Shown here piece after piece: positions 3,191 through 59,949 of a stretch of DNA of 59,949 bases. Numbering within the stretch: position 1 is the first letter of the stretch; each line of letters begins with the position of its first letter. A model generated the notes under the pieces. It was not told the DNA's origin and ran no database searches. It saw nothing but the letters and a program-made list of their open reading frames with translations. The position numbers and the translations under genes were made by a program. The stretch comes from Vermamoeba vermiformis. Taxonomy: Eukaryota. The stretch lies in NCBI GenBank assembly GCA_045837725.1, contig JBEWZL010000179.1, forward strand, positions 682,001-741,949. The letters are read 5' to 3'.

Positions 3191-6100
3191 ATGCTCGCCC
3201 AAGGTTTAACCCTTGTTTTTCGGAGAGTGAAGAATTTACACAGGCCAAGAAGCTGCGCCAATCTTGCAAGCAAAGTCGAATCTGATCTTGGGACGAAATT
3301 TTCCTCTTTTCTTTTAAACCAACGTAGAGGTACGTAGCATACGTGAAATATTTATTACGACGCGACCTTTCTTCCAGCAATTTATTGTAGCAATCCGATC
3401 CGAATCTGACGGTCAAACTCCAAATAACTTTAAATTTATTTAGGATATGCGAAGAGGGTCCAAACCAAACTAACGAATCAAAAGGAAGCTCCTCCTTTAG
3501 TGTTGCCACCGGGTAAGACCAGATTTGCACCTAAAATCAACGGATCCGTTATATTTTCCAGCAATACAAGTACAGCCATAAGAAGCAAAATATTCCGTGT
3601 ATAAATTGAAAGCTAATATTTTGTTCGATAGTTGAACCTGCAGCACGTGCGGTGATACCTGCAAACCGGCAATTCGTACCGTTTGAAGAGCGAACAGTTG
3701 CTTGGAAATTCAACGATCGATGCCAGCCAAATACACTTAAATTTCGCGTGGCTTATTACGGAATTGATAATTACAATGCTGTGACTTCGAGTCAATGGAG
3801 CATCGATGGCAGAGCGCCGATTATAGCACCTTTTTTTAACCGCGATGAAGTGCTGTTGGACATGTTGGGTGGTCTTTACTACAATGTAATGCAGCGTGGG
3901 ACATTTAAACCAAAATATTCTGTCCAAATGCTGACTCCCGGCTCTGGCAAGACACGAATGCTCACTGAGTGGGTCATGCAAGCATTTGCTAACAGAAAAG
4001 TCATTGATGGATTCTTGGCCAACACCACTGACACGCAAACGCGCCGAAAGTTCTTGAACACGTTGTATAGATCAGCGTACAAGCAGCACACAATTCTTTC
4101 GTATGGAAGATCATGGGTTGCCAAAAGTACGGAAGTGACGGATTTGCAGACAGGTATGTTTGACCAATCACATTCAGCTCAGTACTAACTTTGAATAGCT
4201 CTGGTCGACATAGTTATACGAACCATATTGAGTAGGCATTCAGGCCAGTCTATTGAATTTAAAGGCAGACTCATTCAAATCAATCCTGAGACTGCTAAAG
4301 AGTACTTTGGTCTCCACACTCATACTGGAGAGCCAGAGCTAACAAAACTGGTTGCACTGTTTGTGGCGATGGCTGACATCACTTATGAAGACCCTGAAGT
4401 GCTACCCTTCCCACAGGATGGTTTGCTTGAAGGCAAATGCAATGTATTCTTTTGTATTGATGAGTGCCAAGTACGTACATTATAAAGTGATTACAAATCT
4501 AATACATCACCAGACTTTCAGTGAAAGGTTTAAGAGCAAAAACAAAACAGATGGTTTGTATTTGCTGTTTAGAGATGTTGCTGCAAGAAACCAAGAGTTA
4601 ATGGAACAGAATGGAATATCTCCTTTTTGGTTTGCAGTGGGCACACATCTACCTGGCAGATTCTTTGACATTGAAGGCAATCAATCTCAATTTGACATTA
4701 TTGTTCCCTCTCTCAGCAATCTATTGGATGTCAAGTACTTGGTGCAAATATGCAAACAGTACCTCCACTACAAGTTGCCTTCAGAATACTGCAAAGATGA
4801 CACTAGGTATGAGCATAAGTCACTTTTTTTGCTTTACTTAGTACTAAAGGATTCTTCAGTACTCTACCTGAGCTTCCCAATGCTGTGGCCAAGGCACTTG
4901 TTCGTAATTACCTTAAAACTTTTGGCAACCCTCGAGCAGTTGAACGGCTTATCTTTGCAGCACTTACACATCTCAGCACTATACCTGAGTTAACAAGTCA
5001 TGACCTTCGGAAAAGAATTGACAGGTTTGATAAGCAGCTTGATCAAGAGCTGCTCACCATCTTTGCCCCAACAACTCTCACAGGACCCCAGAAGGACATT
5101 GCCAAGCTTAGTATTGCAGCTGCTTTTTGCTGTGACCTGGCATATGACAACCCAATTCGTGGCCTAAAAGTTGCACCAAAGGCTTTGGTCTCTTCTGGTT
5201 ACCTCTCAGTTTGGAGAAGAGAACAACCAAGTAATCCAACAGATGGTTTAGCAAAGTACCATTTCACTCATCCATTCTTCACTTTCACTGCTGCTGAGAT
5301 GGAAAAAGAAATTTTGCAGAGCCAAGTCCAGGAGAGTGAGTATTGGACTCCATACCACATCTCTTTAGCATCTCTGGTGCTGAAAAAAGAATGTGCAGAT
5401 TATTTGATGACACAGATGAAAGGTGAAAGCTTTGAAAAAACTGTGGCTAGCTCATTATATGCTAGATATGTGATGGCATTGAAGAAGCGCAAAGGTATTG
5501 TTAAATTGTTCATTCTTCATTCAACTGACACCAATTTCAGATTTGCTGTTAAGTGACATATTTCCTGCAAAGAATATACCTGCTTTTCTTAGCAACGTCA
5601 TGGTAAGGATTTTCTGCCGGTTGCTACATTTACAAGTTTTTTTCAGGTGAAACTCAATGGAGTTGTCAAATTAAAAAAACATGCCTCCAGTAACTCAAGA
5701 CTGGTGCATGATGCAATAAAGGAGCATAAAGTAGTTGCCATAGATGTTGGAAACTCAAAGATTGCAGATGTGTTACTGCCAATTACAATACCAGGATCAG
5801 AGTGGCAGGTAATTGTTGGTTTTCAATGCAACAAGTACGCTGGAAAAGTAAGTCGCTACTCAAACAAACAACTTACTTAACTATTACAAAATCCTCCCCT
5901 ACAAGACTATTTGAGCAATTGCAAGACATCTCTGAGTCGTGGGGTTTTCTTTGTGGGCATTGCACCTGTCCAACATGCTAATAAGAAGGTAAGCTAGCAT
6001 TAGTCTTTTGATTTTCTAACCAGTATCAACAGTTCATTTCTCAACTCTCTAATGATGAAAGAAGCCATGCTTTTCTTGCTGAAGCAAGTGAGCTAGTCTC

Positions 6101-6239
6101 TCCATTATACTTAGTAGGAATGAGTTTTGTCCCACAAAACCCAGCACCCCTGCCAAAAGTGCAAATATCATGTCTGGAAAAAAACTCACCATCACAGATT
6201 GAGACCCCTGCTGATTATACCAAAGATCACAGGTCTTGA
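3191..6239 (+). CDS. P-loop NTPase plus C-terminal PD-(D/E)XK-like domain (Crinkler/CR-effector-like), with predicted mitochondrial presequence; about 9 exons, possibly pseudogenised
   Basis: Spliced reconstruction: MLAQGLTLVFRRVKNLHRPRS...NQRRGYAK, Walker A TPGSGKT, Walker B FFCIDECQ, GNPR motif, then GESFEKTVA...ADVLLP...VGFQCNK. The acceptor needed at 5888-5889 reads AA rather than AG. Confidence 0.65.
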
Positions 6240-6435
6240 GCCAGCAGTGCTTGTGCATCTGTCAGGCGTTGACTTAACCAAATGTTACAACTTTTGAAAT
6301 AAACAAGTATTTACTACGGAAATTTGAAGCACCCTCACTGTTAGTCTATCAGTCTAGACCATGGTGCTAAAACAACATTTGACTTGTACTGACTACTTCA
6401 GAGTCTACACGAGTCTTGGGCCTACTTAAGCCAAT

Positions 6436-9167
6436 TCATCTGTTCAACAGCTCGCTAAACGTCATTACACTTTAATAGGAAAGTTGTACTTCTGTGCGAG
6501 CTCTTCAAGCTTGCTCGTCTCGAATTGACCGTGTTGTGCTAAGAAGGTAAACACTGCAAAACTGGCTTTGATCACTCGCGGATCTCGCTTCAACAAATGG
6601 TCGACAATTGCGTTGGCCTTAAATAGTTCTAACAAGGTCCTAACAAAAACAATGTAAGTATATAACAATTAGCTCGGACTTAGAGAGGTCGTGCTTACTT
6701 GATGCTCATGCCTCGCGCTTCGCTGCTATGTTTAACGCCAAGTTTCCAGAACTGGCGCTTCATTTTCTTCTTCTGCTCTTCGCGCGATGAGACTGCAGCG
6801 AGAATTTTCAACAAAAACTTGACGCTGGCTATTTGATTTTTCAACTTCGGCGAGAAAAAATTGTCTTTCCAAACTTGGAAGTTGTACATATCGAACGACT
6901 CCTGTAATAAAGAATCATATGTTAGTATATAATAGATATGATAAAGGTATCGGCTTAACCTACTTGAATCGTTTGTTGGGACCAATGCTGCGCTAGTATG
7001 TTCTGCAACATGCCTCCAACGTTCTGGTAATGCAGTCGTTGGCTGCGTGATAATTTTTGACCGGCATGGACACTCAAATAATTAAATACATTCGTGCTTA
7101 ATAGAGGCAAATAAGACTTTGCAAATCTGCTCGACAAAGTGTCGCTGATCTAAAAATAGTAACATTAGCCCTTTTCTGACACGTGTCATCATGGAGTATT
7201 ATACGTACATGACGTAACGGCGTCAAAATAGCAGCCACAATGCTCAAATTCATCGGTGGCAAGGACTTGATGAAGCTGAGAATAAGATCGAAGCCGCCGA
7301 GCTTGCCAAAGTAATTGACATTGGCCAAGTACAACTCGGTGCCTTCTTTGCACGTGGACAGCATTACTTTCCGCGTGCCTTTCTTCAGCTTCTGTTTCAT
7401 GAAAACGACATTAGTACTAATATCAAACATTACGCACATGGTAAGTGTCAAATTGAAGACTACGTCAAGTGACACGTGTCAAACTTACTTTGACAGTAAA
7501 TCGTTTTTCGTTGCTGTCGCCGATCTGCCTCAATCGTTCATTTTGCACGAACGGGTCTTCGTCCTTGACTTTGCCAGGCCGCATGTAATAGAACGGCATG
7601 TTGGGGCTGAAGATCTTGTTCATCAATTGCAACAAAAACATCAACGAGCCACAATTGTACGATTGATTTTTGTCGCTCGAATCGACTGACGTGCGGTCCC
7701 GTCGCATTTGATCGCGTGAAAAAATATCAGGGCGAGTATGTGATCGTTGTTTGTCGTATTTGTGGCCATTGGAATCTTCGGGCTTGTCTCCGAATATAGA
7801 TTTAGGACTGTTTCGTGCTGAATCTAGTTGATTTGACGACAGATCGTATTTGTGCAAATAAAACACGATCAATTCGATGACGCGTTGCAACACCTTGTTC
7901 ACGCCCATTTTCAATGCTCGAGAAGTGAATTGACTACGAAATAATGGTGCCATTAGTAACGAGGTGCTATTTATAGTCACTTGCATAGATTGAATTTACA
8001 CGACATTTCGTAGTGAGTATCAAATCTTGCAAAAAAATGTATGCAATGATTTAACCGAAGAAATTTATCATGATTTGGTACGAAATAAAATTTGTTATAT
8101 AACTTACGTCTCTACGAGAAGGTCTTGGATCTTCTTGGGCAATATCATACGTATAAACATACTAGTATTAATTTTCGGGCCGAATCGGTTGGCCATAACC
8201 GCACGGATGCACTTTCGAATGAGCGACAAGTAACGCGCATCTGTCAATTAAAACACCAAGCATTAGCGAATTATAATTAAATAACCGACAAATCGAATTG
8301 ATACGCGCTTAAAGAATCGAAATTGAATTAAATTGTCGTTAGTTCTACCGAAATTTCGTAACACATCGCGTTTTTTCTGTGATTTTCAATAAATAACGAT
8401 AGCGTCTGTAATTAAAGATTTAATTGAATTGCGGACTGAATTGAATATCTTAAGCGAATCTATCCCACTAAATCTTGCCGATTTGGTTAAATAAAATATG
8501 AAACTTACCGAGATCTGCCGCTAAAGTTTGATCCGAAAATAATAGATAGTGATAAGAACACGTCTGTAGGTATTTGATTATGACCCTATAAAAATAATGC
8601 AAATTAGAGCTGAACCACACTTGCACAAGACTCGGAAAATAAAAACTTCGCTTGGGATCAATTACAAGCGATAAGATTTCGAGGGCAAATACCGCAGTTG
8701 TACTATATAATTATAGTGCTCGTATTGCTAATGATATACTACGGATAAAGTAATTTCACCGATTTTCCGTGAGGATCCGTTTTATAATCGCGCATGCCAG
8801 CTGCAATTTACCTCTTCATATAAGCCTCGCGCCATGAAATAGATATGTTTTGTTCTATAACGGGCAAGAACTTCTCGTATTCGAATGACATGATGAAAAT
8901 ACGACGCCAGAGATTATCTGTAAAAATTATCAATAATCAACGAATATTCTACCGGAGAGGAATATTAAAATCATGAATAAAATGGAATAATTATTCATTT
9001 TTTTATAATTCAGCTTCTGACAATTATCAAAATTAAATACCTGCCCCGGCGTTGATCTTCCATTCGTGAGAAACTTGGCAGCATCGCTGAAGGTCTAAAG
9101 GCTTTAATAATCCAAATATCATAGCCCAGATCTCGCGGGGTATCGTTGGGATAGTTGTAGCTTGCAT
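6436..9167 (-). CDS. F-box protein with a USP9X/USP24/USP34-like N-terminal-type helical (ARM) region and no USP catalytic domain; multi-exon
   Basis: Exon 1 (9167-9041), not in the ORF track, reads MQATTIPTIPREIWAMIFGLLKPLDLQRCCQVSHEWK (F-box); the next exon has DNLWRRIF..SWREAY. Later exons NYFGKLGGFDLI, FFSPKLKNQIASVKFL and ANAIVDHLL..VFTFLAQHG resemble USP9X-family N-terminal segments as I recall them. The stop is at 6465, or 6436 if a last intron is spliced. Confidence 0.7.
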
Positions 9168-9474
9168 CTTCTAATGATTGCAATACAGCACTTGCTAGTT
9201 ACATTCACGTATTATAGTGGTAAAATATAATAATTGAATTAAATGACTTGTGTGTGTCAGTTATTCGTGAGTAATTTAATTATGCCAAGAGACAGACAAT
9301 TTTTATTTCTCGGCGAATTTCGACGAAATCTCACCACTTAAATTTTTTACTGTGGAGTTCTCTGCCAAGGTGTAGAAATAAATAGTTAAGAGGTCTTATG
9401 TGAACATAAATAATTTATATATGATTACATGAAAACTCGATCCAGGATCAAGATCGATTTCGTACTCGGACGAA

Positions 9475-11510
9475 TTATTGAGCAGTAGGATTGGCAAGGT
9501 TAACTTGGCCAAGACCGCAAGCAGTACCGCACGAATCATAAGGCAAGACATCAGGAACGATGTTGACTTCAGTGGTGACCTTGAACTCGCGCTTCTCGCC
9601 CATTCTGCCGTTCTCGGTGACCTCGTAAGTGAATTCGAGGAAGAACAAGCCCCAACCTTGAGCAGGAGCCGTGCGAGAGGCAGTGTAGATAGCACCGTAT
9701 TGAGGGGTCACTTCAGTGGCGTTCCACTTGAGACCTTGGTAGCAACCAGCTCCAGTAGCGGTGACGCAAGCGAACAAACGGAAGTCACGTTGAGTGGTGC
9801 TGATAGTGTTGGTGGAGTACATGACGACCTTCTTAGGTTGAGTGCCAGAAACAGCAATAATAGAAGCGTCGTCAGTACGAGATGTGGTCTTAACCAAGTT
9901 CCAGTTCAAGTCACGAGGACCGCGCAAGTTATCAACAGCCAAGTGGAAGAAGGTGTCGATGGAGACGAGGACATCAGTCAAGTTGAAGGTCAAATGGAAA
10001 GCATGATCTGCTGCAGGCAAAATGCGCAAGTACTTCTCGCCGCGGAGGTCTTGGAAGAAGAAGTTGGCAGCGTCGGGTTGGAAGAACTCGTCTTGAGATG
10101 AAGCAATAACATAAGTAGGCTTAGGAGTGAACTTGTTGTTGTAGTTGATCGGATCGATCAAAGCAGCCAACGCGTCGAAAGCAGGAGTGTTGAAGAAGTT
10201 CATATTGCCGGCAAGGAACTGAACGAAGCATATCAATATATATACTACCCTAAACAAATAATTAAATAAGTTACTTACGTAGTCAGCGAAAGTCCAACTC
10301 CAACCGCCTAGGGATCTAAAGGCGGAGTTGAGGTTAGGAGTGATGTTGAGGATGGGCATGACGATGGGGATGAAGGCCTCGACACGCTTGTCAATACCAG
10401 CGGCCAACCAAGTGGTCCAGCCTCTCTTAGAAGCACCGCACATAACGAAAGACTTGACTTGAGGGATGTCGAGAGTTTCAACAAAGTCTTGAATAGCGTC
10501 CCTAAAGCATTCGTTAATACAATAATAATAAAAACGATAAGATATGATTCGCTTACATAGCACGAATGGCAGATTTGACTTGGGGGAATTGCAAGATCCA
10601 GCTAGGATCGGAGGTTGACGGGTTTTGCAAAAAGTGTTGCCAAGTGTAAGCGATGATGCCGTCCTCGGTCTTAGCAGTTTGAGTAGGGTCATCGGCAAAG
10701 ACGATGGGTTGGTTAGGGACTTGCTCGAGTTCTGCAATTATTACGTAAAAATAATGCCGGATCACGCGAGATATCTTTTAATTAATTCGGAAGAAGCCGT
10801 AACACCGTTCAGTGAACGAAGATACTTCCGAACATAATTTCGAAACCGTATCGAGAATAATGTCAGAATCAATAACTTACGGGCAGTAACAGCGTCAGTT
10901 CGTTGGCACAAGAAGTCTGTGACACCATCCACAGCGGTCGAGGTGAGATCTGCGTCAGTATTGCTGCCACCATCAATGTACAAGAAAGCGCTCTTGAACG
11001 AGACCTAATTACCGAATTCGGAAATTAGTTCTCCGCGCTCCGTTCCGTAAACGATTCGATTCACTTGAACTTACGGTATCGGGCACGCAAATAGTCAAGC
11101 GATGAGTCCAAACGGGCTTGGAGGACTCGGCAGAGGTCAACCAAGTTTGCGAGGTCAAGTTGAGGAACTGGAAAAGTATCGCGTGAGCCAGATTTACGGA
11201 TCACATAATTTACCAAAAGGTCCCATCGATGTCACATCAACAATTTGATCGAATGAATAATACTCTCCATTAGTGACTTTAAATGACGAGAGGACAACGC
11301 GGGCGTTGGAAATTTGGTATGAGATCCGAGTCTTGTTCGGTATGCACTTACGAAAGCGGTGTAAGAGCTGCCACGAACAGAGGCCATGGTGGTGAAGTCG
11401 TACGAGTAGTCGTTGTTGTTGATGTATTGCTCCAGAGGAGTACGCTTGGCAACGACACCGAGAACGACAACGGTGCAAAGTAGAAATACGAGGAGTGCTT
11501 TGGATGTCAT
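9475..11510 (-). CDS. Secreted PqaA / AprA-family protein (PhoPQ-activated pathogenicity-related, alpha/beta-hydrolase-like)
   Basis: Signal peptide MTSKALLVFLLCTVVVLGVVA. Family motifs LNLTSQTW, YIDGGSN, QVPNQPIVF, EDGIIAYTW, GASKRGWTTW and DEFFQPD. Confidence 0.9.
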
Positions 11511-13070
11511 TTTGAGGGGTACTGAGGTATCAATAAGTTGGATGTGGCTTATTGACGTGTGGTTGTGGGTTCGGGTTTGTTTTTGATTTAATCCAGCAAC
11601 AACACCCGTATTTATGCGTACTTGGCTCACAAGTCACGTTTTGTGATTCTAGATAAATTTTGTTATCTGAAATAGCCTTCTTGGACCTCCTACGAACTCT
11701 TGTCAGTAAACTCATATTACAGGCGTAGGCTTTACTTTGTTCGTGTAATATCTAAGCGGTCTGAGGCCTCTTGATGCAGATCCTGGCTCCGTGTCCCGTG
11801 ACGAGAATTAATTTTTATCTGGCAACGTAAAGAATAAAAACTTGGGAACCTGTCACTTATTAGTTTTTATCTCCTCGTGAGATTACGCGTACCTTAATAT
11901 AGCGTGCTTTGGTCTTGGCCTGGCTAGTTCAGTTTGGTTTGACACATCAATGGGACGCCGTCTTGGTCCTGATGTATAATTGCAAGGTTACCAAGAGTCG
12001 CGTAATTTTATACAGAGGCCTATACTTACTACTACTTATAAAGTCCTTGGAGAACTACAGTGTTACATTCGATGTCAGAACGACCGGAGATCCGGATGTT
12101 CTTGCGAGTCCACAATGGTAGTAATTAAAGTGAAAAATTGGGTTTTTTTTTTTTGGTATTTTTAATAAAAAAAAATCGCGATTACTTGCTTTGCAGAACG
12201 GACATTAATGCGGAGGCGAATTAGGCTGGAAGGCAGCTGCTGTTGTGCCTCGGGCAGCAGGACAAAACAAAGAACGACGAAGTAGGTTATTTTTAATAAT
12301 GACATTCGATAAGTTGCGTGAAAAGAGGTCGATCGCTTTGAGGGCGAGATGTCGCAACAGATTAAATTTGATTTAAAAGTAATCATAAAGAGAAACAAAT
12401 AATACGAATATTTTCTATATAATACTAATTCTAATTGATATTAAATAAGTCAAACGTACCAAACAAACCAACGGCTAATCCGGGATTGGATGAGGCTGCC
12501 AACTCATCGAGGCTGCTAATACGTCGAATTGCGAACACTTTTAAAAGATCTTGTGGCAATTTCGCAGCAGTTTTACGAAATTACTCTTGAAATGACCATC
12601 CGCGGATGTTGCAAAGTTAGACCAGTGTCGTTCCGTATAAGAAGGCAGTATTAATCAAGATAAGGTTGGCCAATATAAATACTATCACGGTAATATTGTA
12701 AATCTATTTGCTTCGCTGGCTAAATGTTCGGTGGAATTTTGACTTTTTATTTCAGACCCAACAGCAGAAACAAACGACGAAAGAGGAGCTGATCCGCAAG
12801 AACTCTAGCAAATAGACTTAGGATACCATTAAGTCACTTGTATATTTAACCCGTTCCTCCGCTAGAGTTATTTCGATCGTAACCACTGATCCAAATTATA
12901 ATTATTGTTTCAAATCGCTGTAAGTTCTTACTTGCGAATTATGTATTAAAATACAATAATATTAATAATATAATTATAATATGCGGATTAATTAAATTTG
13001 AATTGAAACACAAGACTGATCGAGTTTTCTAGCGTCTCGTAGGTAGATGTACTGCACTCACTTATAAACA

Positions 13071-16000
13071 ATGACGGACCAACGAACACTCTCAGTATCG
13101 AGTGGAAACAACGCAATGACAGACGCACTAGCGTCGGATTCAACTGGTAATTTCCGTTTCGAATCCCTTTTACTCCTTCGACGGCAAATTTCAAACAATA
13201 TCGTGACGATTTTTATAAAATTAATACCTGTATACTCATCTATAATACTCGAATAATGCCAATTTCGATGATTTAAATTTATTCGAAGCGTAATCATGCG
13301 AAGATTTTGTCTAATTTATAAATCATGCAGCGGGGCCTGACAGTACCGACTTTCGAAATCTACGAACAAAGAGCTCAGAATTGCCCAATTCAAATATTAA
13401 GAGCGGAGGACTCAAATTAGGCATAAAGGATTCGCACAAATCCGGACCTACGATTCTACCGTCGAGCGAAATTAATTCAGACGTATCCCCTAGGACTAAG
13501 GAACTGTAAGTTGATGCTTACCATGACCATGACCATGTCGAGAAAATTTTCTTGATTTAATGCCGATAATCTTGCGACTTTTCTGGAAGCGAATTGCCAT
13601 TTATAAACAAATCGACGAGTATAATTTTCTAAATTAAAATTATTATCGAGAACGTACTATCATTGGCTGCCAACATAACGGCTATTCCTTCCGTTCGGAA
13701 CAAGCCAAACATTTTTTGCTTCCGTCATTAATAATTTCGACCTTCGTTTCCGACTGCAGTTTATTAATAATTAATATAAGGTATGGATTAAATCCTCCTA
13801 AACGTGCCCCGCCATCGGCACCGAATGCGGGACCAACAACAAGTGATCCAAAGACTTCAGCTACGCTTGGCGGCAAAGTTCCAACTTCACTCGCTAAAAC
13901 CGCGGCACCGCCACCTCCACCACTCACGAGCAAACCTAAGCGATCAATTCCTACACCTGTTCAACCTGGCGCTGGTGCTGCTGGCGTGCAGCCCCCACAA
14001 CAGCCGCAACAATGGACCGCTGCTCCTGCGAAGAAACAGCCCATTGGCTCTTCACCGCGACAATTACCGACACTGCCGCCACGGCCCAACGATCAAATAT
14101 CACCACGGTCCAATCCTAGTGTACCGAAAGTCACGAGCACTCCACCACAATCACCGCGTGACCAACCAGACAGTGGACCGGCAGCTGTACATACTCCCAC
14201 CAAAGCTGTCACCGCTGCACTGACGACACAATTGGCGCAAGCACTGCCCGCGCAGTCAGGACCCAGCTCGGGAAGTCCTACAGCGAGTGCACCGACTTCA
14301 CTTTCAGCCTCAACCAATTCATCTGTTCAAGTCACACCAGCGAGCACTCCTCGCCCTGCATCGAGCGAGCAAACTGTACCTGAGTTAAGCGACGCGGAAA
14401 AAGAGAAGTTGCGTCGTATTGAGAAGAAGAAGGCACGCATTCGAAGTATTTTAGAAGCACACGCAGAAGAGGTGAAGAAACTCGACTTGAACTCTTATGA
14501 CGTCAAGAAAGCCACGCTGTGTCAAAGTGTGATTCGATCGTGGTTCGCGAAAAATGACTTCAAGCTTATGAGTACGTCATTGTTATAATTACAATACTAA
14601 CTGAGTTATTAACAACGTTTGATGTTTAGAGGAACAATTCAACCTTAGAACGCACTTAGTCAAAGAAATTCTGAGCACTGAACAGTTTTATTTGCAATGT
14701 CTCAACACCCTTGTAAAAGTAAGTCAATGTGCTACCCGCCTATTAGATGATTATAATTGACCGTTTCTACGCAGATATTTTTGTTACCGCTTCGAGAGAC
14801 GGGCATTAGGAATGCTCAAGAAGCGTTTATTTCGTTAGACGACGTGCGAATTATTTTTGGTTCAGTGGAAGTCATTTATAACATCAACTCGGAGTTTTGT
14901 AAAAAATTGGAAGAGAAGGTCGCTAATTGGTCCGTGCATCAAAAGATCGGCTCAGTGTTCTTGTCAATCGTAGGTCTTGCTAACAAATTGATTACGTGTT
15001 ACTTACGGCTTTCCCAGGGTCAATTCTTGAAAGTCTACACGCAGTACATTAACAACTATAATCAAGCCATGTCGCGCTTAGAAGAGTGCAAGAAAAACAA
15101 ACTTTTTGCACAGTTCGTGATCGACTGTAAATCATTGCCCAAAGTCGAGTTAGAGCTGCCATCTTACTTGATCATGCCTATCCAACGTATTCCTCGTTAC
15201 CAATTGCTGCTAGACGGCCTTGTTAAAGCCACACCGAAAGACCACCCCGACTACAATGACTTGTCCAATGCTTTGAAACAAATCGTGTCCGTGGCTGATT
15301 ATATGAACGAGCGCAAACGAGATGTCGAGAACATTCTGCACATGACCAACTTGCAAGGCCAAATGATGTACAAAGACGAGAAGTTTGTCGTAAGTAGAGA
15401 CATTCTAGTTTGGAACCCAAGCACGTGCCCTAATCTCGTTTTCTTAGCCTATTGTTAGTCCTACGCGTCGGTACCGAAGAGAAGGAAATTTTGAAGTTTA
15501 TTTTAACGGTGAAAGAAGTCCTTTCGGTTACATCTTCCTTTTCACGGACGCCGTGCTGTTCACGAAGCAAAAGAAGAAAGGTTATTTGTTCTTCTCGCTC
15601 GTGTTATTGAAAGACATCAACGTCACTGAAGGCACCAAAGAAGGTAAGATTACAATACGGCAAAGTATAACAAACGTAGATTTGATTCTGATGCCCTTTG
15701 GAAATTTCATAGAGCGCCCAGCCATTTCACTGCTCCACGAAGTGAACAATTACATGATTGTGTTCCCCGACAAAGACGAGCGACAGTTGTGGATGCAAGA
15801 CATCGAGCCCAAACAAAATCCGCAGCTCGTCGTGCCTTCACGCGAATCAGTTGAAGTTACAACAGCCTTCAAGTGGACCGACCCTGTCTCACCCCGCGGT
15901 AACGTGAGTTCACCGCGCGAATTGTCGCCCAACACTAGTCCCTTAACTGGTGAAGCTGACAAGAAAAAGTAAGTGCACTAGACAGATCTAAAATTGAAAT

Positions 16001-45430: not shown

Positions 45431-47992
45431 TTACTTGGCAATCTGCAACAATGCAGCGCTGGTAACAGGCATCTTGATCGTGTAGCCTCCGCAGGATGGT
45501 CTCACGTATTCAAGCTGCTGAGCACCCACAATATTGCCATCAGGAGAGCCGTCGAATGTTTGACCTCCCCAAGTCACGCCTGATTTGGCTTTGTAACTGG
45601 GTGCCAACAGTCGCGTGACATTTGCCGTGCCATAGCCAGGTAGCTCAATGCGGATGTTACCCGACGTTGCCTTTTCCTTGTTGATCAGCACGATGCGGAC
45701 GATTCCCTTTCGATCCTGCACGGCCCATACTTTGATGTTACGAGGCCCCGCGTTGACAGTGACAGGAAGAAACTTGGCTTGTTCTTTTGTTGCTTGTTGA
45801 AACAGGAGCTGGCCGTAGTACTCGGGGTTGACTCTGACGAGGTTGTAAACGTAGTTTCCGTTGACCCAAGAGGCATTGAAGTGTGCTGGACTGTATATTC
45901 CGGTCGCAGCCCAGTGCCAGTTTACGCCGTCGACGCCAATCTTTGCGAGTTCGAACATCAAGTCTGGGGCCCACAGAGCCGATTGGAACGTGTCACTAAT
46001 GTTACCGACACCGCCGCCATCAATGGAGTTCATTTCTCCAATGCGGAAAGTCATTCCGTTTGAGTGGGCCATTTGAACAGCACTGACATCTACCAAGAAT
46101 TGAGGTGCGGAGGATGTCTTTGTGGGATCTAACAAGAAGTCTTCCGTGAAATTGGTCTTTCCATCGTGATAACCACTGTAGTAATGATGACTAGCTAATT
46201 TAACGTAGCTTTTCTCCGAGTCCACAAAGTTGCTGAAGTATTGTATGCGCGTGAAAATTCCCCAAGAGCCTCCCATAAAAGTGATGTTGCTAGGAGCAAG
46301 AGGCCTTAGTGCCGCGCGGAATTGTCCGAATTCTTGAACATAGCTGTCGCTGATACCATAACTGTATTCTCGAGGACGATATCCATTGTAGCCGTAGTTG
46401 TCTGGCTCATTTCCAATCTCAAATGCAGCGATGCTATTCGGAGCCATTTGTGTAAGGTATGCTGAGAGTTGAGCTTGTGCCAACGAACTGCTTCCATTTC
46501 GCATATTGACACCAAGAGTGAACTGAACAGGATAGCCGTACCCAGTGAGGTACGTGCGGAGTTCATTGAGTGCTTGTGTTTTGCTAATGTCGCCTGCAAC
46601 TGGGTATCCTTGTGCGTCGGTTGAACCACCACCAATGCGTATCAGAAAGGGCGAAAACCAATGTCCATCGAGTAGTGGCAACAGCAAGTGACGGTATATG
46701 TAGTTGACGCCACCGTTTGCAACCCAGCCCATGATGCCTTGACCATCGCCCCATTCATGCGAAATCCCAAAAAAGTTCGGAGGAATTGCAAGACCTGGTG
46801 TCGTGCCAACGGCGGCAGTCGTGATGATGTTTGTTGCAGCACATTCGGGTGCTAGAATAACGTCAATGGTCACGTTGCTGTCAGTACTCAAAGTGAGCAT
46901 GACTGTGGAGCTGTTGTTGCCGCAAGAGACTAGGACATGCTGACCGTCAGATTGGGCGTCTTGATGAGTGATTAAGCAGCTCAATGGGAGAGCAAGATTA
47001 GCGCAGGTAATGTCAATGACTCCTTGCACTTGACTGCCCTGTTATTAATATTAATACCTAGCTATCAAAGTGCTGTTGCGACTTACCTCGATGAAGTTAA
47101 TAGTAATTGGTCCGTCAGATGTTATCGAACCAACTGCTGATGGATCGACGGACAGAGAGTGAAGCTCAACTGATGCTTGCGAGGTTATGTCGTACGACGA
47201 GCGGACTGTCAAAGGACCGAGAAGCGATACCGTGGCTGTAACACTTTGTATAGACACAGCGATGGATTGCACGGATAATGCGTCCCCTACCTCCGAGGCT
47301 ACACTTCCGTCGATAATGTCCAAGTTGATTGCTTCGAACTGGTAGCCATTCGGATACTCAATCGTGACCTGAAGTCAAGTTAGTTGCAATTTCATTTATC
47401 TTCGAGACTTACCTGAAGCACGATTTCAGAGTCCGCCAAAATTACAGTGGATAAGCCTGTGAATTCAAGTAAATGACGCAGCATGTGAGCCATTTGGTAC
47501 ACGTACCTGCCAGGCAGACAAATGCTGCTAATTGGCCGCGGCTTGTGACTTGTTTCAAAGCCAGAAAAAACGGAAAATAAAGCAGAAATTGCCCGATTAT
47601 GTTGATTGAACCCAATGACACCGTAGATGGCAACGCGACGTTGTTGAGCTGTTGTAAAAGGTATTAATTCTCACGTTTTGAAGAGTGACTACGTACTTTG
47701 AGGTATATTTCGCCTTTAGAGCCCGTCGATAAGATCTGCTGTAACGTTATTGAACGAGTAGCGCTAATAACCAATTGAGGTCTAGTAACATTTGTGCTGG
47801 CAAAACGAATATTGGTCTGGGCGACTGTTAGAAAAATAGTATTGTATGTACGATACTTACTTGTAATTGTGCTATTAGATGCAAGGAGGTCGAGTCGAAT
47901 TCGTAGGTACCAACGTACTCGTACTGCTGACACAAACCAGGCGCAACCACCAACAGTAGCGTCGTTATGACAAGCACGTAGTGTTGCAACAT
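45431..47992 (-). CDS. Secreted glycoside hydrolase family 79 (beta-glucuronidase/heparanase-like) with N-terminal extension
   Basis: IRIGGGSTD, FEIGNEPD (acid/base), FRIGEMNS (nucleophile), SDTFQSALW and GVNWH, plus a C-terminal beta-sandwich (VTWGGQTFD). Signal peptide MLQHYVLVITTLLLVVA. Confidence 0.88.
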
Positions 47993-48694: not shown

Positions 48695-51049
48695 ATGGAG
48701 AAGGAATTGGTGCTTGACGAGCTTCCCTCAGACGTGCTTTATTTAATTTTTTCGAATCTTTCACTCGACGAACTATTTACGTGTGCATTTGTCAACCAAG
48801 TATTTAGACGCAATACTAAATTTCAATCTCTCGGATTGGTAAGCATACAATTATTTTAAAATATTTTTGAATATCGAAAAAATTTATTTATTTTGAATGT
48901 GATTCCAGAGAGACGGAATATTCGATTTAGGTCTGAAAGAATTGGACAGACAAGATTATAAATCGGCGGTGGTAAGTGCGAGAATTATTGTGGATTTGAA
49001 AATTTTCTTTTCTGAGATCTCGTGCAGGTTCATTTCGGTAAACTCCTCACGCTATTCCCAAACGACTACGAAACCCGCTTAGAATATGCTGTTTGTAGAC
49101 GAGAGGCATACAGTGCCGTGCAAGGCCTACTCGATCTGCGTCTAGCGGACAAGGTAAATCTTTGTTCCCGTCTGAAATGTTGCTAATGGCGGCGCTGTAA
49201 TTAGTACGCAGAGCTAGCAAAGGACGACGCTTTTCGCAAATTTATTCATGCAGAGTGCTTTTGGATGCGCGAAAACAATGTGCGTGCCAAAGAGGATATC
49301 ACGAAAGCAATCGAATTAAATCCGAATAAGGCGCGGTTCTATCACTTTAGAGGTACTAATTGGGTGATTTCGTTCTATAATATCATTTCCTAATCGTCTT
49401 GTTAGGCTTTATTGAAAAAGATTACGATGCCGAAATGAAAGACTACGGTAAGCAATTTGTTTAAAATGCATAGCTTACTAATCCTTAAATAATTAGAGCA
49501 AATATTGAAGCATCATCCTAATTACCGCAGAATGTCAACGATCTACAATAACATGGGATTTGCGAAGTCGAAGATCCAGTTGTACGAAGAGGGCATGGAG
49601 CTCTATTTAAAGGCCATCGAGATATGTCCACATCACGTGAGGTACGTGGCATGGTGTAAACACTCGAGGATGTTCTAACCAAGCTGCTTTAGACCGTACT
49701 ACAACTTGGCTGTCATTCACGCTGAGCGGAGAAATCACGAGGAGGCAGTTGCAGTCGTGAACAAAATCCTCACCATCAATCCCAATTTGACTGAAGTCGC
49801 AGCGTTGCGTGGCTGGTAAGCCCTCAGCATAACCGTTGCAAGACTTTGCTGACTCGTTCGAAAAAGGGTTTATCACAACAACGCGCAGTTGACAGAAGCG
49901 CTCGAAGACTACATTACTTCGTTGCAAAAAGATCAAAAGGACGTCGAAACTATCCTGAACTTGCACTCGATAACGATATTCGCGGGCAAGCTCGACGATA
50001 TGATCGAAGTCAACAGAAAGTTTCTCGACAAATTAATCGGCGATTTGAAGTCCGTCGATAAGAAGCGAGAAAACATCAAAAAGGCACTCGAGACATCTTT
50101 CAAGAGTTTGAACGAAGGTCTAGTCGCTGAGGATTGGAACTACATTGATCCGTTCATTGATGTAAATAAGAAAGAGATGGAAATCAAGCGTGCGTTGAGA
50201 AAGATTTACAGGTAAGTTCAAGTTGCATCAATGATAATATGCACGAGTCTAATCGTTGCAGAAATCTTGCTGAGTGTCACATGCAATACGGCATTCCTGA
50301 AGTGTCACGTGACGAGTTCCGAGAGATGCTCAAATATCCCACTTCCGATGAGAAATCGACGGAGAAAGATCAGGACTCGAAGTTTTTGACATTTTTATAC
50401 GACACCTCGGGTATCAAAGTCGAAGATATTAGCGAGGAGGGAAGGGAATTAACCAAGGTATGTGGCCCAATTCGAGTTAGTCTATTTATCGATAGTTACT
50501 GAACCATATTAGATATTGATTGGCACGATATCTACACCTGTGCTACTCGCACGCCGGCGACAAATCGCAGAAGGTCGTTTGCGGACCTTGGCAGACGTGC
50601 AGTTTTTGTTCGTGAACTACTGCTTCAAAAAAATGAATCTGTATTTCCCTGGCGGTAAGACTACCGTTATAATCTTAATAGTAGTTGACGCTTTTGTTTG
50701 CGGCATATCTCAGAGAATCACGAGACTCGACTGTCGACTCTTGGCAAACTGTTCACGGAGATCACAGACTACTTCATGAACGAGCACATGTCGGTCAAGA
50801 ACAAAGCTATGGCGCTGTTCTGCTTGGCGCCACACTTCTTGTTTCATCTTATAGAGGTGTCTTGGGTACGTAAATGATATGCCAATAGCGTTCTTTGACT
50901 AATCACGGTACCGACAGCGCGCGCAAGGACCGACAGGGGTGTCCAACGCACTCGAATTGCAAGTCACTGGGTGCTATCAGGAGGACGAAGATCCGGAAGC
51001 GTTCTTCGATAGAATGGCTCAATTGTTAACATATCACAAATCCAGTTAA
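48695..51049 (+). CDS. F-box and TPR-repeat protein
   Basis: LDELPSDVLYLIFSNLSLDELFTCAFVNQVF (F-box). TPR-like segments AIELNP, YNNMGFA..YLKAIEICP and YYNLAV...ILTINP. Confidence 0.85.
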
Positions 51050-54537: not shown

Positions 54538-56035
54538 AGTCGCAGAACGGTAACGCACGTGTCCGCTTCCGGATTTGGAATAATATTTGTCTGATTTTCA
54601 TGAACGAGAATTTTATATAAGATACACGTAAGTACATTATCGCAGAGAGAATCAAATGATGACTCTAGAGTTCGTCTGAGTATTGTTGAGTGCTTTCGTC
54701 TTCTTGGGGTTCAGCGATCCGGCGAGCACTTCGGAGATTGTAATCTAGTGTTACGTTGATAAAGAACTGACATAATAAATGATTACTTACGATTTGTGTT
54801 GTTGTTATTTGGACCAGAACCAAGTTAGCAATGCGTCGGTCTTTTGGTGTTCGTTACTTACTTCCTTGAGCGTTGCTGGCATTTGTGTTTGACACTGCCA
54901 TTCAATAATGTTAGAAGGATAACTTAACTGATCGGCTAAGTTATCCCACCAAATTTCTCGCAGCAAATTAATTTGATTTAATTAATGTTTGAATATTTAT
55001 TAATACTATAATTATCACGAGCCTAATGTCTATAATATATATTAACTAAATTTGAAACTATGCCGTTCTTTGTTTCTTTGATTTAGAATTTTTACGCGAG
55101 ATCTTGCGACCTCGCTTCCTCTTCAGTGGTGCTGGAGGTACCACTTCTGTTGTCATATTTTGATCAGTCTCATCTTCTTCAACAGAAGTATTACTTGAGC
55201 TTGAATAGTCACTGTCATCATCAAACACTAGCTTTGATGTGGTGTAATATAACGGTGAGATCTACGCTCCTTTCGCCATTATCTCCGTCCCAGAAATTCT
55301 TTCCTATTTTAGGCAACTTTATGTGAATCGGATCTGCCATAAATAGCGTTCCGAAATCTTGTATTAGTGACACACTTGTAGTAAATAAACCAACACACGT
55401 CATTATAACAAAGTAAGACTTTTATTACATTTGGCGACACCGTGTTTAACGTACCGCTCGCAGACATGGCTGAAGAATTCGGCAAATCTGTCAACGAGTC
55501 AGCGCGTAAAAAGAATGGGCTAGACCCTAGAAGAGAGTCTACTTTTGACGTGACTACAAGTGAGTTCCTCCGTTATATTTGTTGTCGTGGAAATTTCTGA
55601 CCAAGATCCAGTCAGCGAATCACCGGATTCATATATACTGTAGGGCCTGGCCATATAGGGCTAGCCCTGAAAAATAAAAAATATTGTTGAAAAGCTATTT
55701 ATTTACAACTGTACAAAAAAACCCCAATTACCCAGGAAAAACCAAAACTGTACTAATCGTGTGCTAATTATAGTACTGTATTAGAACAGTCAAGGCACAG
55801 TACAAAGCAGACAGATAATTGTATCAGTGCATGTAACAATAAAAAATACTAAGTTTTACAAGCAAAAGTTTTCTGTAGTCGTACTAAAACAGTAATTGTG
55901 CAGTATTGAAAGTGTTCTAAATATTATGATTTATTATGTATGTATTTTGTGCTCAAACAAATTCAAAACTGTTCTAAATCGATCGCAAAGCGACAATTTT
56001 AAAGCGATTTAGAACACCTTTAGTACAGTTCAAAT

Positions 56036-57284
56036 TTAGCCAGCGTTAGCACTGTTTTGGGTTGGCTCTGGAACAGGTGGTGCTGCAGCAGCAGTAGGTA
56101 CCTCTTCAGGGTTCGTCTCCGCTTCTTCCCGTGATAAGAATACTCCTACAATTGTAATTAATTAGCAAAATGTTTTGAAACAATTGAACAACTTACCAGA
56201 GTCGTACACTCCAACAGCATTAATCAAACGCTTCTTCTCTTTCAAGGTCAACTTGTAGAAATCGCCTGTTTTTGTCAAAGCTGCTTTGCATATAACTGCT
56301 CCAATTGGAAGGGAGTCATGCTGCATTTTGTGTGTGAAAAGAAGCTGATCTTTGGGCTCAGCTTCAAACCAGATAACTTCTAACTCCCCAGCATCAGCAC
56401 GGCAGTCAACGACTTGAGCAAGCCAAAAGTCTTCTTCTGCAGTTTCATCAGGCAAGACACATATAACAGAGTCCAGAGGATAGCATGCAACTTAAAAACA
56501 AATTAGCACAGTTATAGTATACCGGCGGTACATTTTAAGTACAGTTGTAGAACATACCACGCTTTTTGTCTTCAGCAGTTACTTCGCGAACTTCTCCATT
56601 GCTTTCATTTTCCTTTTCTTGTTCTTCAACAATTTGAGATTGTTTTTGCTTTTTCTTTTCTACTCGAGCAAATTACTATTATGGCAATTATAATGAAAGG
56701 AACTTACTCTTTTTGTTAGTACTTCTAGGCCGAGCAGCTGCAGTGGGCTCCTCTTGAGTTACTCGGTTGAATTTCGCTTGATCTAACAATAAAACTTGAT
56801 TAAACAGTGCAGTATTGCAGGTAGTTTTAGAACAGTTTTAAGCCACCTATAGAACGGTTTTAAAACACCTATAGAACGGAACATACCAGGAACTTTAACT
56901 TTTTGAGCATGTCGCTGATTGTTGAGACACTTGCGAACCACGTCATATATTACCTCACCACTAATAGATTTTCCACAAAACCATTCTTGATGCATTTTAA
57001 CCGCCTCGGAAATTGTTTTTTCGACGAGGTTACCAGGTTGCTTATTAATTGGCTTGGTCAAATCAAAATCACTGCTAATTATTCGGTTGAGGTAATTCTA
57101 ATTTTTAAATATTTTTAGAAAATTGTGCAACGATAATAAAATTAATTTTCGTGAAATTATTTTTATAAGAATTTTAACTTACGCGCATCAAGTTAGGAAT
57201 TCTTTGCCGCTTAGATACAGGCTCCTCATTGCTAGAGTCTGACTCTTGTTCAATAGTGCGTTTACGTTTCGTGGTCTTCGACAT
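56036..57284 (-). CDS. Orphan nuclear protein (NLS, helical domain, C-terminal Tudor/BAH-like beta-barrel); 6 exons
   Basis: MSKTTKRKR..SKRQR; helical exon FDLTKPINKQ...VVRKCLNNQR; beta-rich exon DSVICVL..EEDFWLAQVVDCRADAGELEVIWFE. Canonical splice sites join in frame to the stop at 56036. Confidence 0.7.
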
Positions 57285-57441
57285 TGTTTCGAAAAAAAGT
57301 ACATCCATTTTATATATACTTGGGGTTGACGGACGTTTGGGTTATGGAAAAATTACTAAGTCGAATGGCCAACACATTATATATATAGTTAGGCTTAGCT
57401 AATTTAAGGCTTATAGGCCTAAAGCCTGGAAAATGTCATAT

Positions 57442-59759
57442 TTTTGAATAAACGTTATTTATTTTTGAATATACAATTATGCGTAAAATCAGTACTATCT
57501 TTGTTTTCCCAATTTTGAATCACAAACATTGTTTTCCCATCCATTTGCCTTGGCAGGTTTACAATGAAGACTGAGCCTAAAGTTAAGGAACTTAGTTTCA
57601 TCGGTAACTATTTTGAATATGCATACTTACAAAATGTCTATTCATTTGTATGCACGTCCAACTGGTAGAGTGCAGAATTCTCGATCAACCGTAGTCCAAG
57701 GACTACGATCAAATGCGGAATTCCTGACTGTGCGTAGTCCAAGGACTACGGTCAAATGCAGAATTCTTGACTAACCGTAGTCCGAGGACTACGCTCAAAC
57801 AAAGAATTCTTGAAGACCTGATGTGTACCAGCCTAATCATGAAGGGTCAGAATATTTGAATATGCAAAATAGTAAAATGTATATTCATTTATACCTGTGG
57901 GCCAGTCATCTACGGCGAGTGGTGGGAGGTTGCAGCGACCGAATCTAACTCCAACTGAATATCTCTAAAGAATAAAAGAATGTCAATATTTTGAATATGC
58001 AAAAAAAAATAGTGTCTATGCATTGTCATAGGGCACTACATTGACTTTAACAATTCCTCGAGTGTAGTCCAAGGACTACGGTCAAATGCAGAATTCCTGA
58101 CTGAGCGTAGTCCAAGGACTACGGTCATATGCAGAATTCTCAACTAACCGTAGTCCAAGGACTACGGTCAAATACAGAATTCTTGACATACCTGAAAACA
58201 GGCAAAGCAGCTTAATTGTCTCCATGACCTGTAGAAGGGTACATAAGTAATTTTGAATATACATTAATTAAAAGTGTATATTTAAAAGTTTGTAAAGATA
58301 ATGTGACCGTAGACCAAGGACTACGGTCAAATGCAGAATTCCCAACTGAGCGTAGTCCAAGGACTACGGTCAAATCAAGAATTCTCGACTAACCGTAGTC
58401 CAAGGACTACGCTCAAATGCAGAATTCCTGACAACAGGTCAGGGTTATACCATATACTTTGAGCGTAGTCCAAGGACTACGGTCAAATACAGAATTCTCA
58501 ACTAACCGTAGTCCAAGGACTACGCTCAAATACAGAATTCATGACATATTTGAACAGGGGGAAACTGCCCAAAGCTATAACAGGTGACCTGAGAAAGGGA
58601 ACGTAAGTTACTTTGCATATACATTAATCTAATTTGTCTATTCAAAAGTTTGAAAAGATGATGAAACAACCGTAGTCCAAGGACTACGGTCATATGCAGA
58701 ATTCTCGACTAACCGTAGTCCAAGGACTACGCTCAAATTCAGAATTCTCAACTGAGCGTAGTCCAAGGACTACGGTCAAAGATTCACACCTATAACCCTG
58801 AAGACTTACATAACCCTAACAGTGCAGAATAAGTCCAAACCATCCAATACAGCCATCAGATATTACTTGTGTGCTATAGTAAGGTAGATTAGCATCAGAG
58901 TGACAAAATAAAGAATCGAATTTGAATATTTAAAAAAAAATAATAACTATTTATTTTTGTGGGTCCGCATTTGATTACTTACTGCTGCAATGAAAGGAAG
59001 CCATGCAGATACAGGTGTTCTTATATATTCTATAGTGGTGTTGTTGGCAAGTTGAATGTAACAGAAAATGAACAAAAAAATCTTTTTTTGGTCAAGCACG
59101 TGATCGATGCTCGTTAAAATCTGACCAATGCACGCACTGCCAACCTCCTAATACACTTCTCAAGGGGCACATCAGTAGTGTGCTACTATTCAAATATGTA
59201 AGAGGTCAAGGAGAGGGCCCATTGGTGAGGATCCGATGGTCAGCCGATGTTGGATCGAGATCAGGATTTGCCAATTTCAGTCTGGTGGCTTCCAGTAAAG
59301 TAAGTAATCCAAGAATATTAATATAAATATTAACTACACTATGTGGTTAAACTGGTGGCATTATCTGCTACTATATAATAAAATAAATATTTAATAAAAT
59401 CAAATCTAGCCGTTACCAAAAACTTTATAACTTTTTGTTAGCAGTTCGAGCCAGTAAGTATCAAATTCATAGTGACAATAATATGAGTATTATGGTAAAA
59501 TTAATGTCATACTTGTAGGATAAATGGTAAGTGAGATTTTGCCGATCCAGAGGCTCGTGCACGATCCAGGATCAATCAGTGTGGAGCTTCAGTGACCACT
59601 GGTAAGTTTGAAAACACACTCAAATAATTAACTACAGTGCTCTAATACTAGTTGTCAGGTCAACAGAAGGCAGCAAGAGCTGGTTAAGCAGATCCAGACA
59701 AGTCGAAGCTGTATTTTTTGAATATACAAATAAATATTTTGAATATTCATTTTTGTACA
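57442..59759. repeat. Dispersed inverted-repeat motif TTTTGAATAT(A/G)CA-N11-TGT(A/C)TATTCA(A/T), about 8 copies
   Basis: Copies start at about 57442, 57611, 57855, 57989, 58251, 58611, 58921 (degenerate) and 59717 (spacer 12). Confidence 0.85.
57671..58780. repeat. Clustered 43-bp palindromic tandem repeat, 14 hairpin cores in 5 clusters
   Basis: Consensus TGCAGAATTC-YYRAC-T(AAC/GAG)-CGTAGTCCAAGGACTACG-(G/C)TCAAA. Clusters at about 57671-57812 (3 cores), 58060-58187 (3), 58305-58432 (3), 58460-58545 (2) and 58668-58780 (3). Confidence 0.97.
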
Positions 59760-59949
59760 AACAAATTTAGTGTCTGTATGAGTGATAGTTGGTGGATATA
59801 TCTTTCTACATTGGTCGCAGGTGGTTTTTGTTGAAGTTTGTGGGATTGACATGTCCCCATGTTGAAAATGTTTGATGTCCTGGATCGCAGAATGCTGAGG
59901 TTCTCTCTGCCTTTGATAACCCTGCAAAGGACCATTGCTCTTAGTGTTC

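Follow-up and report, generated by a model that had tools for sequence, protein, structure and literature searches.

Why should two CpG dinucleotides of a short repeat unit have persisted while a third CpG of the same unit was mostly lost? This question is raised by a locus of the amoebozoan Vermamoeba vermiformis (GenBank assembly GCA_045837725.1, contig JBEWZL010000179.1, positions 682,001 to 741,949 of the forward strand; these 59,949 nucleotides (nt) are called the window, and all positions are counted within it), where an 18-letter palindrome, CGTAGTCCAAGGACTACG, here termed the core, is followed by a linker and recurs at a period of 43 base pairs (bp). The first-pass annotation, made from the letters alone, had read the linker CpG as decayed by deamination of 5-methylcytosine (5mC) and the core CpGs as shielded by a bound protein, held by selection or avoided by the methylase. 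The contrast between core and linker is real and goes beyond chance. Our joint reading of it, which we regard as probable to a modest degree, is that the cores would be selected palindromic recognition sites in a dispersed repeat, that the CpG decay of the surrounding block would stem from methylation, and that the linker CpG decays with the block whereas the cores are kept by selection.

Cores and linkers of the 43-bp unit

The core was found 14 times and, in a search allowing up to three mismatches, nowhere else in the window. Eleven copies match it perfectly and the remaining three differ by a single letter; in 13 of the 14, the central AA keeps to the same strand. All copies lie head-to-tail in five short arrays between 57675 and 58774, with two to three units per run (the linker site is the dinucleotide after GAATTC-N):

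57675 to 57818, plus strand: array 1; lead-in linker GAATTC-T-CG ahead of the cores at 57690, 57733 and 57776, with a 25-nt linker after each; linker sites CG, TG, TG, TG
58063 to 58191, plus strand: array 2; cores at 58063 (first CpG reads TG), 58106 and 58149; linker sites TG, CA, TG
58308 to 58436, plus strand: array 3; cores at 58308, 58351 and 58394; linker sites CA, CG, TG
58464 to 58549, plus strand: array 3b; cores at 58464 and 58507; linker sites CA, TG
58671 to 58774, plus strand: array 4; cores at 58671, 58714 and 58757; linker sites CG, CA; no linker follows the last core
57776, 58063 and 58308: the three changed cores, with A>G in column 9, C>T in column 1 and T>A in column 6, respectively
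57682, 58386 and 58706: linker sites reading CG
57725, 57768, 57811, 58098, 58184, 58429 and 58542: linker sites reading TG
58141, 58343, 58499 and 58749: linker sites reading CA

The counts of the first-pass annotation proved exact: 27 of the 28 core CpGs are intact, the sole hit being the first CpG at 58063 (CG>TG), and the linker site reads CG in 3, TG in 7 and CA in 4 of 14 instances, TA never. A naive Fisher test of 27/28 against 3/14 gave p = 9e-7, a value that ignores the kinship of duplicated units. Inferred events were counted on 300 bootstrap trees (unweighted pair group method with arithmetic mean), for which the non-CpG columns of the 13 alignable, linker-bearing units were used. 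On these trees the linker dinucleotide requires four to six independent changes (mean 5.7) among 13 units, and four to six changes as opposed to one in 28 core CpGs correspond to p = 0.03 to 0.002. One or two ancestral linker mutations spread by duplication, the outcome that the earlier annotation had named as fatal to its proposal, do not account for so many events.

Within the unit, conserved blocks comprise the core (columns 1-18), TCAAAT (20-25) and AGAATTC (28-34) plus AC (38-39), and columns 19, 26, 35-37 and 40-43 are free, so that invariant and variable columns interleave at a scale of 1-4 bp. Core centres and the centres of the GAATTC palindromes are separated by 22 and 21 bp, roughly two turns of the helix, which would place all sites on one of its faces. 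The alternation bears on the proposal that the likeness of the cores is due to recent amplification or concerted evolution, the linker differences being old copied variants. Some inheritance is indeed visible: the same linker types return at corresponding places of different arrays (ACTGAG following the first core, ACTAAC the second), so some variants were inherited, and all four array-terminal linkers read TG, which may be one inherited change. However, the spacers separating the arrays share a mean column identity of only 62% (apart from the TTTGAATATRCA module described below), the linker site needs its several events, and constrained and free columns that take turns every few bases exclude gene conversion or recent amplification as the cause and require purifying selection; amplification as the whole explanation was accordingly given very little credence.

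The constraint is a property of the entire core. Only three changes were seen in 252 core positions, equivalent to three inferred events in 18 columns as against 36 in the 25 linker columns, and the 14 core columns outside the CpGs account for two events where about 17-20 are expected from the linker rate (p = 6e-6 to 4e-7). Since these non-CpG columns are as invariant as the CpGs, selection on the whole site explains the sparing, and protection specific to CpG is not needed. The earlier alternative of a protein-protected or selected core is thereby divided: selection stands, with all 18 columns held, and shielding from methylation by a bound protein becomes superfluous. Such a footprint acting without selection, in which a bound factor keeps the core CpGs unmethylated and hence undeaminated, would fit 27 of 28 intact CpGs amid a decayed block, and palindromes are typical of sites bound by dimers; it would, however, protect CpGs only, and not the 14 equally invariant columns beside them, and we consider it improbable. 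The core variants offer a further hint against it. Six were seen, three in the window and three from another sample (G>A at 58731, A>G at 58114, and a loose end whose first CpG has decayed; single low-depth contigs are the source of two of these three), and CpG transitions make up three of the six (p = 0.007-0.02 against a uniform expectation), which weakly suggests that core CpGs mutate fast and are purged. Self-correction of the palindrome as the cause of core conservation was rejected by reasoning, because mutations would be fixed by it no less often than removed.

Some further features of the arrays were recorded. Core flanks are mirrored in kind (TGAG-core-GTCA five times plus one TGTG variant, TAAC-core-CTCA four times), and the flank pairing GAG...CTC, which would extend the palindrome on the GAG side, occurs at none of the 14 cores. 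Fully complementary flanks, TGAC...GTCA, are present in the unit at 58308 only, where they lengthen the palindrome to 12-nt arms around the central AA. By eye only, TCAGGGTTATA (58438-58448) and its reverse complement TATAACCCTGA (58785-58795) were noticed to enclose array 3b, a spacer and array 4, possibly as a short inverted-repeat pair around a sub-element. Satellite DNA or a higher-order tandem repeat does not describe the locus, which has runs of 2.6-3.3 copies per array and diverged spacers between them.

CpG decay in the surrounding block

The arrays are embedded in a block with a pronounced deficit of CpG, expressed here as the ratio of observed to expected counts (o/e):

57501 to 59949 (window end), no strand: CpG-depleted multi-copy block carrying the arrays; with cores masked, 29 CpGs, o/e 0.40

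With cores masked, TpG and CpA in this block rise to 1.34 and 1.27, and GpC stays near 1. The window as a whole is replete in CpG (o/e about 1.06-1.08), as is the baseline, with a mean of 1.13 and an average of 1.32 in its low-GC bins (n = 47, minimum 0.68). An o/e below 0.6 was found in all 10 bins of 250 bp from 57501 onwards but in only 4 of 219 baseline bins, and none of 496 baseline windows of 2450 bp falls below 0.85. The block is a CpG-decay island, having both the deficit against background and the excess of TpG and CpA. Between 57501 and 58800 the cores hold 27 of 39 CpGs on 252 of 1300 bp. From the block a CpG retention of 0.30-0.36 was estimated; the linker, with 3 of 14, agrees with it (p = 0.4-0.6), whereas retention of at least 27 of 28 in the cores at that rate has p = 2e-11 to 2e-13. 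This block-wide decay is stronger evidence than the linker site alone.

Other copies of the repeat point in the same direction of change. At 57768 the window has T and most other copies have C (5990 of 8751 depth), so that this linker is usually CG across the repeat family, and both 57768 and 58302 read TG in the window and CG in most or all other copies compared. A second sharply bounded CpG-poor island, at 4251-6450, holds about 16-19 CpGs in 2.2 kb (o/e near 0.15, TpG/CpA 1.2-1.7) and served as an independent control for CpG context.

It could be argued that no methylation was involved, that the block has a CpG-poor origin, for instance a virus or other foreign donor, or was shaped by another mutation bias, and that the cores are simply conserved. 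The absence of a CpG deficit from the window overall (o/e 1.06) agrees with this, as does at least one gene of bacterial affinity in the window, which indicates that foreign DNA enters this genome. A foreign or otherwise biased origin nevertheless appears unlikely: TpG and CpA rise together as CpG falls, with GpC hardly altered; the linker takes the states CG, TG and CA only, with TG at 57768 and 58302 where most or all other copies keep CG; and two islands with sharp edges fit targeted silencing as in Acanthamoeba.

The context of the decayed sites is relevant to the last of the earlier proposals, that a methylase avoiding ACG/CGT never methylated the core CpGs. The ratio of XCG to XTG, relative to baseline, is given below for the island at 4251-6450 and for the block with cores masked:

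ACG: island 0.14; block 0.20
CCG: island 0.08; block 0.18
GCG: island 0.12; block 0.17
TCG: island 0.10; block 0.41

ACG is thus depleted in both regions along with the other three contexts, and the core's own words CGTA/TACG are found outside the cores of the block twice, as opposed to 54 decayed forms (ratio 0.037 against 0.484 in the baseline, about 13-fold depleted), and five times in the island, as opposed to 29 decayed forms. Although these counts are small and the methylation itself is deduced from decay, nothing was found in support of avoidance of ACG/CGT, which was rejected and is hardly credible as an explanation.

The dispersed repeat and a putative core-binding protein

The locus is a multi-copy dispersed repeat with different flanks. 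In a DNA run of the isolate the word depth was 245 for a contig over the 5' end of the neighbouring gene (57200-57336) and 1262-1510 for single contigs over 58.9-59.9 kb, and summed depth amounted to 4000-15000 for the arrays and rose to as much as 20000 at the TTTGAATAT modules, with 479 contigs on 2750 bp. The repeat therefore has 5-fold to about 80-fold the depth of the neighbouring gene end, where summed depth is not a copy number and is read as several-fold to tens-fold repeated. Its probable left end was recognised from the flanks:

57371 to 57376, no strand: probable left end of the repeat; at least three kinds of left flank meet the right-hand sequence

The 80 bp to the left of this junction continue differently elsewhere, and it is probably the end of one repeat that was inserted into another. 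The repeat is probably mobile. In another sample one copy skips 58183-58460, and DNA of the locus is also present in water, aquifer, soil and hot-spring metagenomes, among which one water sample (X3) was compared in detail. No inverted copy of the left end appeared among the listed repeats or in self-comparison; the other terminus lies outside, as the block continues past the last letter of the window.

A second conserved module, free of CpG, accompanies the arrays:

57604 to 57646, plus strand: first of seven copies; TTTGAATATRCA and, about 11 nt on, its imperfect inverted copy
57847, 57982, 58244, 58604, 58913 and 59709: starts of the other six copies

One copy of the module stands ahead of each array group, and its bins have the highest read depth in the block. 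The 9-mer TTTGAATAT occurs 10 times in the window, always on the plus strand, where 1.3 occurrences are expected: at 48866, at 54988 and otherwise between 57464 and 59746, eight of them in 57.4-59.8 kb and usually paired in inverted orientation at a distance of about 11 nt. As the bins containing it are those of highest depth, the motif is dispersed through this genome in great abundance. Hairpins of the module are weak (z from +0.1 to -2.9), and a spliced-leader or small nuclear RNA-like interpretation of its GTAAGT, U-rich stretch and hairpin, made by eye only, was dropped for want of Rfam support. An AT-rich module, (A)CTATTTATTT accompanied by TTGAA-type words, recurs in three intergenic positions (57400-57470, 55640-55700 and 58920-58960), in two cases with a short GC-rich hairpin, e.g. 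AGGCTTATAGGCCTAAAGCCT, ahead of it.

Taken together, the cores would be sequence-specific recognition sites, most likely for a putative dimeric DNA-binding protein that would meet one face of the helix every 43 bp, carried as arrays in a dispersed, multi-copy, probably mobile and non-coding amoebozoan repeat. This repeat would be targeted by CpG methylation, through which the block would have lost about two thirds of its CpGs to TpG and CpA; unconstrained CpGs, including that of the linker, would decay accordingly, and those of the core would survive by purifying selection on every core letter, with neither context avoidance nor a CpG shield being needed. Cores, GAATTC block and TTTGAATAT module would all be held by selection as recognition sites. 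The putative protein could serve the element, as a transposase or recombinase, or the host, in silencing, as a boundary or in origin function, and the benefit of the conserved function may fall to a selfish multi-copy element instead of to the host.

Several observations weigh against this reading. The linker counts that the first-pass annotation had called a classic 5mC-deamination pattern are correct, but the site by itself is not clearly hypermutable: its two CpG columns have four events each and the seven unconstrained non-CpG columns (19, 26, 35, 40-43) two to five, with a mean of 3.1, i.e. about 1.3 times as many events as their neighbours and below the expectation for a strongly hypermutable site, although saturation may mask a difference. 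TCG, the linker's own context, is the least depleted in the block (0.41 against 0.17-0.20). The view is letter by letter at one locus only, other copies having been seen as summed depth and a partial list of differences. No open reading frame (ORF) of at least 150 amino acids (aa) lies in 57.3-59.9 kb, only short stop-to-stop frames, and no transposase was recovered from it; Pfam gave no match near the arrays; and no binding protein, terminal inverted repeat or target-site duplication was found in the available 2.6 kb. Finally, the core might act as a single-strand hairpin, its invariant stem giving no covariation.

Such a hairpin, in DNA or RNA, could be a tandem rolling-circle (Helitron-like) signal or part of a structured transcript. 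The core folds into a 7-bp stem with a 4-nt loop (with flanks -9.1 kcal/mol, z = -5.7), the central AA is strand-fixed in nearly all cores, and linker columns 39-42 read CTAA or CTGA, resembling CTRR, in 10 of 13 units. However, the hairpin is 20 nt from this tetranucleotide, the left junction at 57372 reads CAA|CAC and not A|TC, no Rep/helicase ORF was found, Rfam matches are sub-threshold only, and a stem of 7 bp is short for RNA processing, so that a single-strand role is doubtful. In Rfam 15 no match reached the gathering threshold in the whole window; the best sub-threshold ones are microRNA-like (18-24 bits against 60-100) and arise because adjacent palindromes pair. No transfer RNA was found.

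Beyond recognition of the sequence, the methylation state of the two core CpGs, which stand outermost in their half-sites, might itself be read, by a dimeric factor that docks on the palindrome, depends on or is excluded by methyl-CpG and would couple the epigenetic state of the repeat family to silencing, mobility or boundary function. What would speak for this is that the core CpGs lie in the footprint block, and are constrained like the rest, and that the few core variants are enriched for CpG transitions, as methylated sites subject to purging would be; it is nonetheless a rather unlikely extension, and to our knowledge no methylation reader or sensor site has been described in Amoebozoa.

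Further searches characterise the repeat. A coding repeat was considered, three units amounting to 129 nt, yet no ORF of the above length exists and the short frames run off array 4. A CpG-neutral pattern (the 14 innermost nt of the core, combined with the conserved letters of the linker) had no locus in metagenome, genome or viral contigs. The plain core had none in viral contigs and three in metagenome contigs, dismissed as chance for being single sites with neither linker nor array, at a GC content of 0.45-0.65. A literature string search with the inner 16 nt of the core gave no match. No RNA sample was listed among those containing this DNA. Two RNA raw-read runs contained one partly fitting read and none, as was the case for the neighbouring gene end too, which says nothing on expression.

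Neighbouring genes, known systems and significance

The island at 4251-6450 overlaps broken plus-strand reading frames (3610-6239) that open with a Walker-A-like GSGKT; Pfam yielded no significant match for its ORFs, and an Atlas look-up returned leads of STAND/AAA-ATPase type, all below 0.9. It looks like a silenced, decaying gene or insertion. The gene adjoining the repeat is on the minus strand, bears introns, has its start codon near 57285 and showed no Pfam match in its exons. Across 55501-57000 its 250-bp bins have a CpG o/e of 0.26-0.92, including one of the four baseline bins below 0.6, and decay or silencing may be spreading into it. One of its introns holds 2.4 tandem copies of the 22-bp unit TAGAACGGTTTTAAAACACCTA (56828-56879), and some 850 bp away (55968-56012) the related GTTCTAAATCG makes up an inverted repeat of 11 nt.

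Window ORFs include RapGAP, RhoGEF and PhoPQ-related ones, the named RapGAP relatives being from Balamuthia, Acanthamoeba and Entamoeba, by which the window is placed among Amoebozoa. An intron-free ORF of 532 aa on the minus strand (45431-47029) is of GH79 glycoside hydrolase type; its named relatives are bacterial (Acidobacteria-type names, 40-46% identity), the only closer match is a 97% identical protein, and the ORF is a candidate for gene transfer from bacteria to the amoeba; its bacterial matches carry no information on the host lineage.

As to methylation in Amoebozoa, the published Acanthamoeba castellanii methylome reports that genes are not generally CpG-methylated and that methylation is CpG-only and limited to a few percent of the genome, namely repeats, intergenic DNA and silent or foreign genes, with a global methylated CG level of 1.3%, hypermethylated windows making up 3.4% of the genome, and both DNMT1 and DNMT3 present (PMC12344493). 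The sharp CpG-decayed islands in a CpG-replete window, one of them a multi-copy repeat, resemble it, and the two cases differ in that Vermamoeba is another amoebozoan and that here the mutational footprint alone is seen where 5mC was measured there (PMC12344493).

The arrays share with the subterminal repeats of transposons a short motif reiterated near the end of a multi-copy element and selection at the level of the element. Subterminal protein-binding repeats are known from Ac/hAT, En/Spm-CACTA and Mutator elements, and some of their motifs contain CpG and are bound in a methylation-responsive manner. The present motif differs from these in that it is perfectly palindromic, is directly repeated in its 43-bp arrays and lies 300-1400 bp away from the presumed end, and no transposase was found. 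In Helitrons, a hairpin precedes the 3' CTRR by about 10 nt, the 5' end is TC, and insertion occurs between A and T. The palindromic hairpin upstream of a CTRR-like tetranucleotide, in tandem within a dispersed repeat, is reminiscent of such ends and arrays; a Helitron terminus was nevertheless rejected, given the 20 nt between hairpin and CTRR (columns 19-38), the divergent junction and the lack of a Rep/helicase gene among those found. Crossover sites of invertase-type serine recombinases consist of two 12-bp half-sites around a central dinucleotide. The unit at 58308, with its 12-nt arms around AA, may be comparable, but fourteen arrayed sites and the absence of a recombinase gene set the locus apart.

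From vertebrate genomics it is familiar that CpGs in constrained sites persist and neutral neighbours turn into TpG and CpA. Constrained CpG-bearing sites surviving in a methylation-decayed repeat therefore follow a principle already known, and if the palindrome were a mere transposon binding site, the finding would be ordinary. In contrast to the vertebrate cases, the setting is a protist repeat with 14 near-identical sites, in which the linker CpG serves as a control within the same unit. The 43-bp unit is thus a natural internal control, offering one neutral and two constrained CpGs 14 times over. Sharply bounded CpG-decay islands on repeats of an amoebozoan genome would be the footprint of targeted cytosine methylation, and the 18-bp palindrome, singled out as the functional site of an unclassified repeat family, may provide a probe for the interplay of methylation and factor binding.

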